Part shown: one piece after another, positions 1 through 16,248 of the stretch
Layout of the letters: the number at the start of each line of letters is the position of its first letter
Position numbering within the stretch: the first letter of the stretch is position 1
Source of the DNA: Psammoneis japonica
Taxonomy: Eukaryota
Direction: 5' to 3'
Length of the DNA stretch: 57,165 bases
Assembly (NCBI GenBank): GCA_008632985.1
Contig: QPGO01000215.1
Span: forward strand, 62,001 to 119,165
Translations under genes and position numbers: made by a program
Notes under the pieces: model-generated
Seen by the model: the letters and a program-made list of their open reading frames with translations, nothing else
What the model was told of the DNA's origin: nothing
The model's database searches: none

Positions 1-1371
1 CACTGGGTGGGGATGGCCTTTGTCTTTTACCTTCTGTTGCTTGCAAAGGTGGGTTGCGAGGTCTGCGCATCCTGCTTCAGCGAAGAAGACGCGGAGGAAC
101 CTTCACTTCCCTTGGGTTGCCGCATCCCAAAATTCAGAATGGACAGAATCTACATCCCTCAAGAATGCGATCTGGAGGATGATCACCAGGCAGCAGTTGA
201 TCTAGACGACAGAGAAGACGCGGCAGCCAACAAATGCAACACTGACCATTCTGTGGAAAACAACGACAATGATTCAGACAACGAAGGAGAGGGCAAGGGC
301 AAGAGAGCCAACAAAAAGAGAATCCCAATTAGATGCAGCATTCACCAGCATGCAAAGCTGCTCGAAGACATGCTTGCATTCCATGCATGGTGCAAGCTGG
401 GCAACCCTCCTTCAGACAGAAACGACCTTCAAAAGATTGCAAAGAAAATTCGTTTGCTTGTTGCTCGCACAGTCCATTTCTCCCTCTTCTGCCGGCATGC
501 CATGAGTTTCGATGCTGGTCTTGGCAAATCATTGTTGAAGGACTTTTTCAAATTGCCAGCCGCGGCGGATCAACAGCGGAGCTTTGATGTCTTCTTGGGT
601 CAGGTGGCATCTCACATGGAAGACCAAATGATGGTTCACCGAGCCATCTCCGCCAATCCATGGATTGCAAACAAATCTGCTTGCAAAATGCTTGCGGTGG
701 GCGATGCGGCCAATCACCATCTGGGTGGTTCCTCGCACGTGTTGAAGTGCAATGCTTTGAACAAGGCTGTTTTGTTCCTGTGGAAGGGAAAACAAAAGCA
801 TTGTCAGGTGCACCCTGTTCTCCTCAAATTTGCAGGGAAAAAATGGAAGGAATGTGTTGGTGACAGAGAGAACCAGACAAAAAGCATTCTTTGCAAAACT
901 GAGTGTTGCAACAAAAACGGAATCGACACTTGCCGCACGCACCCAGACCATGACAGTGAAGGCGCCATTCATGACTGGGCAAATGCAAACTTTGGAACTC
1001 GGCGTGGTGATTTGTTCTTCCCTTCACGACTTCATTCTTTCTTTCAAAGAATTGGCGACGGTGAGTCATTTGCAATTGTGCATCCTTGTGCTTGCCAGGC
1101 GGACAAGCGCACCATGGTGGAACGCACGCAACACACTGACCTTGTCAGTCGATGGCAATTGGATCAAGTGAAAAACCAAGAGTTGTCCACACGCAAAAAA
1201 GCCGTGTGTGCTCCAAAGCTGCACTTGGTTCCAATCAAGGCTGTTGGTGAAAAATTGCAGGTGTGCGAGGAACAACTGGGAATCACAGAGTCACACGAGA
1301 AGACAAAGCACGTTTGGGCAGTTCAAGACAGGAGAAAAACATGGGCGGCCAAGTTTCACAATGGCGGTTGA
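1..1371 (+). pseudogene. C-terminal part of a Plavaka-like (CACTA/EnSpm-related) transposase, copy A, mutated; runs off the window's left edge
   Basis: Motifs LLEDMLAFHAWCK, FD..G..LLKDFFKLPA...QQR...FLGQVA and RTHPDHDSEGAIHDWANANF resemble the Plavaka C-terminus (HPxY..G..YDWA) with Y>H/C; recognised from memory, not searched. Confidence 0.65.
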
Positions 1372-1595
1372 TGGGCATTGTTGATGGTTGGCAACTGCAA
1401 ACAGTGCTTTGCATTTCAAAAAAGCATCAGAGCATGCCATTGTTGGAACACACGCAATTTCGGAAACAGACGACAAAACCCTCAGCATTCACCCAATTCA
1501 TGCAGTTGACAAGGCCACAAGAATTGAAGGAGTCAGCTTCATTCGTCGATGTGCGGGTCCAGAAACCACCGGGGCCACGGGTCAAGGCAGGTCTG

Positions 1596-14100: not shown

Positions 14101-16248
14101 GGAGACAACGCGTTCCAGATGCAGGTGGGAATCCGTGTGACATTGGGCCCGTAGACTTCTGCGTGCGAGCTCCGTAGCAAAATTGTGCGGCAATTAAAAT
14201 GTCAATGATCGCCAACAGAAAATGAGGCAATTTTGCGAACGCACAAACTCGCACATGATTCAAGTGCATCATTTTTTACTCAGCCAGTTACATTCTTCAG
14301 ACATTGAAGAATGTAACTGGTGCATCATTGTTTCTATAAATTTGTCATATAAAACGTCTGGGGCTTCGCAAAACAGCGAGTCTGGACAATTTTTTTTAAA
14401 CATCACACGTAGAAATCTACGTGCGAAACATGCGACGGATGATAAAAATTGTTGTCACACGTCAGCACTGCGAGCTCCCACCCAGGGCTGGAACGCGTCA
14501 GACAACCCATTTCATCACAAAATGCTTTCGAATGCTCTTCGCACCGAAGCGACCAGTTGAACGGTGGGGGATTGCGAAGCTTCCGAAGCTCGACGTCGTT
14601 TTCGCAAAGCTGAGTCGAGTCAAGAATGTCAGCGACCATGGCCTTGATTTTGGAAGACTCCTTCACGTCGAAGTTGTCGTCAGGATCAAAAACATGAAGA
14701 CCGCATGTGGCCTTGGGTTTGGCTGATTTTGTAGAGCCAGGCTCCTTTGGATGATGTGACCTGCCAGCACAGCCAATCTTGATCCTTCGTCTGTCTTTGT
14801 TGTCAACTGCCAGCGATCCGTCACATTTGAAATCTGACTCTCCCTTCAACAAAATGAAAAGCCAAAGGGCAGGAATGCACACACGAAGGCAACAAAAGTG
14901 CCCTTTGTAAAGAGAGTTTGCATGACGGGCAACAGAGAGTTCGTCTGAGCAGTGATCGAGGTCAGGAGGATGCACGGCTCTCACACGAGATGCGGCAGTT
15001 GGGTCTCTGATGGGGGTTTTGTCAGAAAAGATGTGCCAGTTTTCCCCAAGGTTGTCGGCAAGGTAAAAGTCGGCAGCGGAAAGGTGAAGCACACACTCGT
15101 GTCAGTTGCCTTGTCAATGATGTGAAGGCGTGACACATGAGCAGCAACTTCGTCTGAGGCAACAGATCGACACTTGGACGGGTCAAAGCACTGTCGGAGT
15201 GCAGACTTGTCCAACCACGACATGTCGTTGGGGTCCAGTGGGGGAGACAACGCAACCGGGCCTTTCGTGGTGCCGACCAACAGAGAGGCTGGCAGCTGGG
15301 AGGGAGGACCTTCCAGTGAAGAGGAAGGTTTGTGGGAATCCATGGTTTCCGACAAAGTGGGAAGGTCAGTGGTGAGAGTGCGGTTTGCCTCCCGCGACAA
15401 CGGCAGGTCGGCAGACGAAGGAGGACGTGCCTTGGCAGAGCGTGATGCAGTCTTTGGCTTCTTGTTGGGGACGGTCAAGGAAGGCTCTTACGCGGCAAAT
15501 GTGATCAACAGGACAAAATGTGGACATGTGAGAAGACGGATGCGCAAGAAACATGCTGTGACAAGGAGGGGGGGGGCACGTGCCGTCGTGCAAACAGGTG
15601 CCATCTTTGTGGGTCCTCCCAATTTTGCGTTTGGTTTTGGATTGATGCTCTTGTTTGTTGTCATCATCCAAGCAGTCGGCCCTCTGATCACGCATTCTGC
15701 ATCAAAGGATTGTGAGCAACTTGCTGCACTTGGGTTGTGTGCCAGGTTGTTCCTCAGGACAGCGCTTCCCAAATTCGTGGTTCAACATGAAATTTGTTTT
15801 TTCTTCGTGTGCCTCCCGACGGGCAAGGGAATCACCAGCCATTGTCACTTTGTTCTTTGTGTTGCGATTTGGTCTGGAGCAAGGTGTTCCTTGACATTGT
15901 CCGCCTGAGAGCCTGGCACTAGAAAGCCATTGATGAACAGGCGCCACTCCTTTTGCGATTGGACATGGCGAAAAATCTGCATGAACCAGCAGTCAAAGTC
16001 ATTTTGTTTGCACTGAACGTGGCGCGTTGCGATTTCAGTGACAAAAAATGCACCGTGGAGGTCTTGTGCACGGTCGTCGATCAGTTTTTTGAGATTTTCT
16101 TCCTTTGGAAACCGGAAACAAGGCTTGCCGGAAACGGGATCATTCAGGTCGTCACCGGCGACAATCATGTGGACAAATTCTGCCATGGCTTTGATGTTGT
16201 GGTGAAGATTCATGCGGTGCTCTTCTTGTTTAACTGTCTCTCCGGGTG
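10539..16248 (+). repeat. Copy B of the duplicated transposon body
   Basis: Colinear with 762-6052. Confidence 0.97.
14107..14499 (+). mobile_element. MITE family 1, copy 2 (TSD AGAC)
   Basis: AGAC at 14103-14106 and 14500-14503; the empty site with a single AGAC is at 4367-4370 in copy A; interior aligns with 8872-9267. Confidence 0.93.

Follow-up and report, generated by a model that had tools for sequence, protein, structure and literature searches.

Apparent hypermutation of TpA to CpA and TpG in repeat-rich blocks of a diatom genome

The stretch of DNA analysed here, hereinafter the window, comprises 57,165 nucleotides (nt) of the diatom Psammoneis japonica (NCBI GenBank assembly GCA_008632985.1, contig QPGO01000215.1, positions 62,001 to 119,165 of the forward strand) and consists of repeat-rich blocks, some 39 kb in total, in which the dinucleotide TpA is almost erased, interspersed with genic stretches. 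The first of these blocks harbors two copies, denoted A and B, of a repeat family with a large open reading frame (ORF) on the minus strand (Table 1), and these copies are the main subject of the present analysis. For the window as a whole, the ratio of observed to expected frequency (obs/exp) is 0.22 for TpA, 1.55 for CpA, 1.48 for TpG and 0.65 for CpG. The depletion of TpA is strictly regional: the TA-poor blocks (1-21.4, 25.5-30.5 and 44-57.2 kb) contain 3-19 TA per 2 kb, at a TpA obs/exp of 0.02-0.16, with 31 TA in the 2-kb interval that includes the border of the first block, and the genic stretches at 21.4-24 kb and 30.5-44 kb show values of 0.45-0.84. In addition, there is a short TA-free island at 24.0-24.8 kb.

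The borders of the blocks are sharp at both the 500-nt and the single-site scale. The density of TA rises abruptly at position 21410, approximately 250 nt past the 3' end of a prolyl-tRNA synthetase ORF, and again at position 30494, at the stop of an ORF related to ADP-ribosyltransferases (ART); the longest gap without a single TA measures 1347 nt. In the moderately CpG-poor blocks (class I), the loss of TA (3.45%) and CG (1.12%) compares with a gain of 5.55% in CA and TG combined and, in the strongly CpG-poor blocks (class II), the respective losses are 3.70% and 4.05% against a gain of 8.70%; that is, the lost TA and CG come back as CA and TG. CA and TG are enriched to an equal degree across the blocks and, therefore, both strands are affected alike. 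The obs/exp of CpG spans 0.06-0.9 across the blocks, with 0.65-0.8 in copies A and B. The second, CpG-poor class of TA-poor block (17001-21000, 25501-26500 and 45501-57165) has a CpG obs/exp of 0.06-0.4 in most 500-nt intervals and CA/TG values near 1.8-2.0, and no protein family was recognised in it; presumably, these blocks consist of older or more heavily methylated repeats.

Self-comparison of the window identifies A and B as direct copies, with 92.7% identity over 3622 nt and 88.4% identity over 1751 nt. A preliminary description of the window, made from the DNA letters alone, had proposed that the two copies were mutated independently, after duplication and on both strands, and had suggested aligning them and classing the mismatches by dinucleotide; the extent of the effect, some 39 kb, had escaped its notice. 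Of the 5247 columns that align globally without gaps, 4883 are the same in both copies and 364 differ, by a transition in 292 cases and by a transversion in 72. CA in one copy faces TG in the other at 57 sites; at 119 sites, CG in one copy faces CA or TG in the other, and at 172 sites CG is found in both; TA faces CA or TG at 17 sites and is common to both copies at seven. Adjacent double mismatches number 92, compared to 25 expected if mismatches were independent, and 57 of the 92 are CA/TG; therefore, the CA/TG discordance between the copies is genuine and well above chance. All the short strings on which the preliminary description relied are in place, namely, TGT (904-906) against CAC (10681-10683) and CAT (949-951) against TGC (10726-10728), as well as TTCTATG (~1876) against TTCTGTG (~11653), TGTAGA (~5028) against TGCAGA (~15200) and CGTACA (~5414) against CGTGCA (~15587).

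As far as the two copies alone are concerned, a CA/TG discordance could derive either from TA or from CG. Outgroups are provided by homologues of the large protein of the repeat family. A word-seeded search with the 643-amino-acid (aa) ORF of copy A (2338-4266, minus strand) found no relatives among 7967 candidates, whereas an exhaustive HMMER search with the same ORF found 60, including 29 at E<=1e-10, the nearest of which, P0121, is 50% identical. Metagenome assemblies are the source of these homologues, apart from a hypothetical protein of a single fungus, Geosiphon pyriformis. In a tblastn comparison, the family protein spans positions 6122-2749 in copy A and 16516-12766 in copy B, on the minus strand, and all 148 of 148 matches lie there. 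Tyrosine accounts for 0.7-8.9% (mostly 2.5-4.5%) of the residues in the first 40 of the 60 homologues, and for 0-0.4% in the repeat ORFs of the window, which contain 3-7% histidine and 3.6-5.4% cysteine.

Over 731 codons (2750-4940 of copy A) compared with 67 homologues, we determined which of the two ancestors, TA or CG, yields the residue that the homologues have. Among the 20 CA/TG-discordant sites within these codons, 12 resolve to TA, mostly in tyrosine codons, one resolves to CG and seven are unresolved, so that TA is ancestral at 12 of the 13 resolvable sites; the preliminary description had named a majority of CG resolutions as the outcome contrary to its proposal. As controls, the 55 sites with CG in one copy gave 28 CG, two TA and 25 unresolved, and the 61 sites with CG in both copies gave 36 CG, three TA and 22 unresolved. 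The contrast between 12:1 and 2:28 is highly significant (Fisher test, p=7e-8), and comparison of the 20 discordant sites with P0121 alone gave much the same result (11 TA, one CG, eight other). An analysis of flanking bases by a mixture model yielded no separation of TA from CG ancestry. Judging from these homologues, TpA is the ancestral state and the change is a transition that gives CpA or TpG on either strand. The preliminary suggestion that the Cys and His codons of the two copies derive from Tyr codons is borne out for the large minus-strand ORF, where homologues are available, whereas the codons at 904 and 949 belong to a plus-strand ORF for which no homologue was found, and an ancestral Tyr is assigned there by analogy; the 'HPxY motif' that had been named at this place likewise lies in a plus-strand ORF for which no relative was found, and the label is unsupported. 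The long plus-strand ORFs at 1-1368 and 9165-10637, which precede the A/B homology, are unrelated to each other.

Decay of CpG is evident in these copies, and one might propose that it is the sole process, the discordant sites having been CG at the time of duplication and then deaminated on opposite strands, with heterogeneity of rates inflating the number of double hits. The 119 sites with CG against CA or TG and the CpG depletion, down to an obs/exp of 0.06 outside of A and B, are in line with such decay, as are the resolution of the discordant site 3597 to CG and the CGA that must have been ancestral at site 4112. However, apart from the predominance of TA at the discordant sites, homogeneous CpG decay, fitted from the counts of CG/CG and CG/mutated sites, predicts 10.3 discordant sites between A and B compared to the 57 observed, 0.16 compared to eight in a younger pair of repeats (8873 and 14108; see below) and 0.35 compared to three in the tandem pair of ART-like ORFs; moreover, it can neither bring the TpA obs/exp down to 0.05 nor supply the gain of CA and TG. 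As the only process, CpG decay is hardly tenable at all.

The 25 Tyr columns of P0121 bear on the timing of the loss. In A and B, respectively, these columns read Cys/His (4), His/Cys (5), His/His (4), Cys/Cys (5), Cys/Tyr (1) and Tyr/Tyr (1), the remaining five being Phe/Phe (3), Arg/Cys (1) and Asn/Asn (1). The 18 columns that contain only His or Cys split evenly, nine discordant to nine concordant, which is the ratio to be expected if the TAY codons were still intact when A and B separated and were then lost independently in each copy, with T>C and A>G equally likely. This agrees with the claim of the preliminary description that the copies mutated after duplication, although 18 columns fix the discordant fraction only loosely, and part of the TA loss could predate the duplication. 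The outcomes at the outgroup-Tyr columns are balanced within each copy (9 His and 10 Cys in copy A, 8 His and 10 Cys in copy B) and, therefore, there is no bias with respect to the coding strand and both strands were hit, as had also been proposed.

The per-copy loss at the Tyr columns is (2x18+1)/40 = 0.925. Since the duplication, the rates per copy amount to 2.59 per site for TA, 0.30 for CpG, 0.0057 for transitions outside YR dinucleotides and 0.0069 for transversions; thus, about 92% of TpA was lost in each copy, approximately 450 times the rate of other transitions and 9 times the per-site rate of CpG decay. The decay of CpG to TpG or CpA, about 26% per copy, is a slower, second process that feeds the same pool of CA and TG. 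The conclusion of the preliminary description that an intact ancestor is recoverable goes too far, and full reconstruction from two copies is not possible: roughly every second conversion is concordant and hence invisible when only two copies are compared, and further obstacles are the 119 sites of CpG decay and the stops and frame changes that both copies carry. Specifically, the large ORF of copy A is interrupted by a stop at 4267-4269 and a frame change near 4917-4944, and that of copy B is in pieces (12766-14321, 14457-15244 and 15899-16516).

Copy B contains a nested insertion that is absent from A. The TA obs/exp of the 500-nt interval with this insertion is 0.40, compared to 0.04-0.06 in the flanks. 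A 91% identical relative of the insertion lies at 8873, and the two differ at eight CA/TG-discordant sites and at eight sites with TA against CA, in seven of which the insertion in B is the one that retains TA. The younger insertion is less depleted of TpA than its host copy, which is consistent with loss in place.

At the edge of the second block, an unrelated locus shows the same change of Tyr to His. The two ART-like (NAD:arginine ADP-ribosyltransferase) ORFs located there in tandem (28846-30493, plus strand) have fared differently: the outer one (29657-30493) passes the Pfam cut-offs, retains two Tyr and ends where the TA density returns, whereas the inner one is a truncated ORF, with His in place of Tyr at two columns that are Tyr in the outer copy and in the homologue or homologues aligned there. 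At a third Tyr column of the ART homologues, both copies have His.

These observations bear on the possibility that the changes arose in RNA, that is, that transcripts of the element were subject to A-to-I editing by an ADAR-like enzyme with a preference for a 5' U and were then reverse-transcribed, so that the copies arrived already edited. The differences are indeed copy-specific, and the A that is edited would be preceded by T, similar to the 5'-neighbour preference of ADAR as it is discussed in a preprint on the chlorarachniophyte alga Bigelowiella natans (Mettrop et al., bioRxiv 10.64898/2026.01.13.699255). Such editing is, however, difficult to reconcile with the near-equality of Cys and His outcomes in each copy (10/9 in A, 10/8 in B) and of CA and TG enrichment block-wide, with the extension of the depletion, within sharp borders, over heterogeneous sequence including the ART-like pair, which is not a retroelement, with the lower depletion of the nested insertion compared to its host copy and with the failure to find a reverse transcriptase in 130 ORFs. 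We regard RNA-level editing as highly implausible.

The TA that survive in the TA-poor blocks are non-randomly distributed with respect to their flanks (163 sites compared to 628 in the genic sequence; chi-square p=1e-16). With genic TA as the reference, survival reaches 0.48 for TTAA and 0.12-0.17 for GTAA, CTAA and CTAC, and it is 0.01-0.07 for all other contexts, being lowest in the ATAN and NTAT contexts except for ATAA (0.07). Put differently, the surviving TA are skewed to TTAA and to NTAA/TTAN. These values are roughly approximated by an additive model in which each strand contributes a single flank effect and, among the tetranucleotide gains, xTAA sites mostly become xCAA and less often xTGA. 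Provisionally, given that the baseline is genic sequence rather than the true ancestor, the preference can be stated in adenine terms, where the edited A disfavours a 3' A, or in thymine terms, where the edited T disfavours a 5' T.

The loss of TA also distorts the reading frames of the blocks. On the two strands of positions 1-17000, there are 82 TAA (48+34) and 39 TAG (20+19) compared to 747 TGA (354+393), so that TGA is left as nearly the sole stop, and there are 20 ORFs of at least 200 aa compared to 2.75 in dinucleotide shuffles. The maximum ORF length in the shuffles, 396 aa, is surpassed by no more than the longest four, of 643, 497, 491 and 456 aa. Thus, the length of an ORF is poor evidence of a gene in TA-poor blocks. 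For annotation, this means that the encoded proteins become poorer in Tyr and richer in His and Cys, that spurious long, overlapping ORFs multiply in several frames, and that searches for protein families can fail, as is the case with the 643-aa ORF (no relatives by the word-seeded search, 60 by the exhaustive one).

Copy A belongs to a high-copy family: 2022 Logan contigs of a sequencing run (X1) align to it at a likeness of at least 80%, 362 of them at 99% or more, 500 at 95-99%, 705 at 90-95% and 455 below 90%; no contigs of a second run, X2, aligned to copy A. The 40 best-supported of the 980 differences between copy A and the family contigs include 14 CpG losses private to A and two TA>TG changes private to A, where copy B and the family retain TA. 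At positions 2822 and 2942, copy A has TG, and TA is kept by copy B and most of the family contigs. Within the element, tandem units of 114 nt (2627-2924 and 12404-12701) encode a tail of the large ORF that is rich in Ser, Asp and Glu.

The same contigs are relevant to the concern that the signature is an artefact of sequencing or assembly, in which a base modification at TA within repeats is miscalled as CA or TG and the actual DNA still has TA. Strand-dependent miscalls could imitate a 1:1 discordance between copies, and the library type of run X1 is not on record. Nevertheless, X1 contains 78% of the sampled exact 31-letter words of positions 26001-36000, the 362 contigs that are at least 99% like copy A fit accurate reads, and, in B. 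natans, Illumina sequencing of mutation-accumulation lines has recorded the same signature in the form of real mutations, as described in the preprint (bioRxiv 10.64898/2026.01.13.699255). An artefact, accordingly, seems very unlikely, although X1 may not be independent of the assembly.

Taken together, these comparisons of copies and homologues indicate that TpA was lost in place, after the duplication, separately in each copy and within sharply bounded blocks. We assign a probability of about 0.82 to the interpretation that the repeat-rich blocks undergo hypermutation at the DNA level, from TpA to CpA or TpG, in place and separately for each copy. Several observations weigh against this interpretation or weaken the case for it. 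At site 4112, the ancestral codon was CGA, since TA would make a stop, and therefore a minority of the discordant sites is CpG-derived. The outgroup test reaches 20 of the 57 discordant sites, of which seven are unresolved. The seven TA common to both copies exceed the 0.8 expected at a loss of 92%; this excess points to refractory contexts or to newly made TA. Clustering of the events by strand is weak (runs test, p=0.03-0.17; adjacent sites, seven same and three different). The copy number in read contigs was examined for copy A alone among the TA-poor stretches, and run X1, which confirms the sequence, may be the source data of the assembly itself.

Under hypermutation at the DNA level, TpA within the repeat-rich blocks would be erased by T-to-C changes on one strand or the other (equivalently, A-to-G), brought about by an enzyme that chromatin state or the recognition of repeats might direct to silenced or repeated DNA, and slower CpG decay runs in parallel, adding to the pool of CA and TG. 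The adenine of 5'-TA-3' may be deaminated to hypoxanthine, which would be read as G at replication, as proposed for B. natans; following this proposal, we take adenine deamination as the most likely chemistry, at somewhat less than even odds.

A different chemistry is suggested by the large protein of the element itself. The unmutated homologues P0121 and P0123 gave confident predicted structures, with a mean predicted local distance difference test (pLDDT) score of 85.9 for P0121 and values near 90 for residues 490-1135 of P0123. In a structural search, the middle domain of P0123 (approximately 470-790) matched TET2 with Z 9.2 (213 residues aligned, root-mean-square deviation (rmsd) 6.1) and NgTET1 with Z 9.0 (165 aligned, rmsd 3.7), followed by CcTet (7.2), FTO (7.0), ALKBH3 (6.6) and CMD1 (6.2), so that the TET and CcTet matches rank ahead of AlkB and other 2-oxoglutarate (2OG) oxygenases. 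The C-terminal region (approximately 790-1113) matched gp46/PUGT of phage PaMx11 with Z 7.4 (215 aligned, rmsd 4.4), AGOG glycosylases with 5.2-5.7 and DUF2419 with 4.9; another structural search showed the same division into two halves. All these Z scores fall in the range that the search tool calls middling, and Foldseek gave weak matches (CcTet, E 0.17, probability 0.4-0.5).

The metal-binding triad HxD...H together with a 2OG-binding Arg is the motif of TET/JBP enzymes, according to the account in PMC11572971. In the family described here, HxD and a downstream 'NSR' are conserved, and, where the distal His would be expected, most members have Ser and P0126 has His, these equivalences being read from the alignment rather than from structural superposition; in copy A, the HxD reads H-H-N. 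The consensus of the C-terminal domain contains 'LCE', which recalls the conserved Cys with a neighbouring Glu of the clade-2 aGPT-Pplases, among which gp46 is described as a glycine:DNA transferase (PMC8989533). Thus, the family protein looks like a TET/JBP-like dioxygenase domain followed by a gp46-like (aGPT-Pplase) domain, which is a predicted, fold-level lead and not a family assignment. TET/JBP genes are carried by fungal DNA transposons of many superfamilies, as outlined in PMC12730594.

Given these resemblances, the T of TpA might be oxidised or hypermodified, to a base such as 5-hydroxymethyl- or 5-formyl-uracil or to a bulkier adduct, and mispair with G, resulting in T>C. The enzyme would be either that of the host or the TET/JBP-like and thymine-transferase-like protein of the repeat family itself. 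5-Formyluracil is indeed a base that mispairs with G. The predicted resemblance to TET2, NgTET1 and CcTet and then to PaMx11 gp46/PUGT, the conservation of HxD and the parallel between 'LCE' and the clade-2 Cys and Glu (PMC8989533) all speak in favor of thymine chemistry, as does the preference of dinoflagellate 5-hydroxymethyluracil (5hmU) on transposable elements for TA and TC that is reported in PMC11572971. Against it stand the middling Z scores and the Foldseek E value, the Ser at the distal metal-binding position in most members and the lack of a match at the sequence level in Pfam, PHROGs and PDB sequences. Furthermore, copies A and B are themselves dead, such a gene was not seen to be carried by the other TA-poor stretches or by the B. 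natans targets presented in the preprint, and T>C is complementary to A>G, so that sequence does not separate the two chemistries. On balance, thymine modification is the main alternative for the chemistry of the DNA-level process, though an unlikely one. A yet more specific version would take the erasure of TpA for the mutational footprint of thymine hypermodification, with the erased family encoding a fusion of a TET/JBP-like protein with a phage-type amino-acid:DNA-transferase-like one, and with this protein or a host counterpart marking TpA. This extension, built on predicted folds, is improbable. If it were true, a eukaryotic mobile element would carry a thymine-hypermodification module, the T mark in silenced blocks would miscode as C, and the repeats of diatoms, and perhaps those of B. 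natans, would bear a thymine mark directed at TpA, with a RIP-like decay that raises GC content as a by-product (RIP, repeat-induced point mutation, is discussed below).

Sequence-level searches gave little information on the nature of the repeats. In Pfam, 24 long ORFs and 130 ORFs of at least 110 aa from the TA-poor blocks showed no match to a transposase, reverse transcriptase or integrase even at E<=1, 16 unmutated homologues had no match at E<=0.001, and 39 aligned homologues had, at E<=1, only scattered chance matches and no transposase family. One of 39 family members matched PHROGs (E 0.0026), a comparison of the family profile with PDB sequences gave one chance match (E 0.31), no related loci were found in metagenome contigs and viral contigs, no known capsid was found for the family of copy A, and a protein atlas search with the ORFs 4917-6053 (minus) and 760-1368 (plus) returned no usable match. 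The preliminary assignment of A and B to transposases, accordingly, finds no counterpart in Pfam, either for the ORFs of the window or for the homologues, with the proviso that Pfam omits some transposase superfamilies. The two putative Copia long terminal repeat (LTR) starts that the preliminary description placed near the end of the window exist, as reverse complements (55302-55310 and 55741-55749), and there is no LTR-like similarity beyond the motif; with a 16-20 nt motif alone, and with no reverse transcriptase, integrase or protease found in Pfam at E<=1 among the 130 ORFs, where heavy decay could hide them, the Copia label is unsupported.

Outside of the TA-poor blocks lies the gene for prolyl-tRNA synthetase, which has TA-poor sequence on either side and is itself ordinary in TpA. 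Its best 120 matches show 75-84% identity and, among the matches listed, all those with a named organism are from diatoms (among them Thalassiosira, Seminavis, Cyclotella, Fragilariopsis, Nitzschia, Cylindrotheca and Mayamaea), which places the host among the diatoms, with no close relative in the database searched. An ORF with a WHEP-TRS domain lies upstream, as in the listed diatom homologues. A single N at position 24883 is located between two stretches of 188 nt that are 98.9% identical (24695-24882 and 25241-25427), and the sequence that follows it (24892-25202) is unusually dense in TA; probably, the N stands for a gap that the assembly left within a tandem or simple repeat.

Table 1. 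Features of the window, with positions in nt from its first letter.
Feature	Position	Strand	Remarks
TA-poor block 1	1..21400		TpA obs/exp 0.04-0.23 per 2 kb; last part (17-21 kb) also strongly CpG-poor
Copy A, high-copy repeat family	762..6052		20 TA (obs/exp 0.06), 514 CA, 512 TG
Degenerate large ORF of copy A	2749..6122	minus	homologous to P0123 (1135 aa) and P0121 (613 aa); Tyr almost absent
Relative of nested insertion	8873..9267		91% identical to the insertion
Copy B, same repeat family as A	10539..16248		32 TA (obs/exp 0.09)
Large ORF of copy B	12766..16516	minus	in pieces
Nested insertion in B, absent from A, 399 nt	14108..14499		less mutated than host copy
Prolyl-tRNA synthetase gene with WHEP domain	21654..23719	minus	ordinary TpA
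TA-poor block 2	25500..30493		ends within ~30 nt of the point where the ART-like ORF stops
Tandem duplicate of ART-like (ADP-ribosyltransferase) gene	29047..30304	plus	edge of block 2
Genic stretch, ordinary TpA	30494..43990		TpA obs/exp 0.45-0.84 per 2 kb; GRIP, MORN and RING genes
TA-poor block 3	44000..57165		TpA obs/exp 0.02-0.07; CpG obs/exp mostly 0.06-0.5
20-nt motif common to 55741-55760	55302..55321	minus	exact over 16 bases, extending to 20 if the discordant part is included; comparison of 800 x 900 nt, E=6e-4

Mutation that targets a particular dinucleotide in repeats is not without precedent, and several of the known systems resemble the one described here in part. Decay of methylated CpG likewise produces TpG and CpA and is clearly present in the diatom blocks as a second process (28 CG to 2 TA at sites with CG in one copy). 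It cannot, however, remove TpA, and it is about 9 times slower per site in A and B. The editing of retroelements by animal APOBEC and ADAR enzymes shares with the present case the deaminase-type hypermutation of mobile elements with a preference for certain neighbours. By contrast, those enzymes hit one strand of a replication intermediate or RNA, leaving strand-asymmetric G>A or A>G changes, whereas in the diatom both strands are affected, in situ.

A further parallel is RIP of fungi, which is similarly defence-like with respect to the genome: each repeat copy independently acquires transitions at a single dinucleotide, on either strand, and ORFs are destroyed. The direction, however, is the opposite: in RIP, CpA is turned into TpA and the GC content falls, whereas the diatom blocks lose TpA and gain CpA and TpG, and their GC content rises. 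The window does not fit fungal RIP, in view of the depletion of TpA of at least 10-fold, the enrichment of CpA and TpG and the ancestral TA. Among base modifications, 5hmU of dinoflagellates is a product of TET/JBP enzymes; it is concentrated on transposable elements, which it silences, and takes the place of T preferentially in TA and TC, as described in PMC11572971. It provides a precedent for a thymine-side route to a TpA-specific effect on repeats; as presented in that source, however, it is an epigenetic mark, and what we observe in the diatom is a mutational signature.

The closest counterpart is found in B. natans. In 15 mutation-accumulation lines of this alga, 231 of the 302 nuclear mutations fell within an integrated giant-virus region and a virophage region, almost entirely as A>G or T>C changes, each of which occurred at TpA; the genome contains 124 clusters that are TpA-poor and rich in CpA and TpG, and an ADAT2-like adenine deaminase has been put forward as a hypothesis (all according to the main text of bioRxiv 10.64898/2026.01.13.699255, which mentions neither diatoms nor the flanking context). 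In the literature we searched, this is the single description of a signature of TpA going to CpA and TpG, and there was none for diatoms; PMC9258296, considered as a possible diatom report of the signature, proved to be irrelevant. As far as the preprint goes, the two cases agree in the change at TpA to CpA or TpG, its confinement to blocks, the resulting TpA-poor, CpA- and TpG-rich clusters and the bias toward GC, opposite to that of ordinary mutation; we also count as a likeness that the affected coding sequences of B. natans are enriched in transposon and viral domains and often cannot be annotated.

The two cases also differ. The host here is a diatom, a stramenopile, whereas B. natans is a chlorarachniophyte, a rhizarian. 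The diatom blocks are near saturation, with a TpA obs/exp of 0.02-0.16 over about 39 kb, compared to the Rho of 0.45 given in the preprint for a nucleocytoplasmic large DNA virus (NCLDV) region. In the diatom, the signature is seen on a high-copy repeat family, the protein of which has relatives in metagenomes and in one fungus, and it could be dated relative to the duplication of its copies. Moreover, the flank bias and the parallel decay of CpG are described for the diatom, and the diatom rate is a relative one, since duplication, rather than a de novo rate.

Within the literature searched, the diatom is a second, unrelated lineage for targeted TpA hypermutation, the first being a rhizarian alga in which the enzyme is not known. 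The near-saturation of the stramenopile case suggests that the process is either ancient or recurrent, and the availability of two lineages allows a comparative search for a shared enzyme. The paralogous copies, the nested insertions and the outgroup protein family together form a natural clock that measures rates and flank preferences. Thus, compared to B. natans, the window presents TpA hypermutation in another eukaryotic supergroup, near saturation, with an internal clock and an outgroup family.

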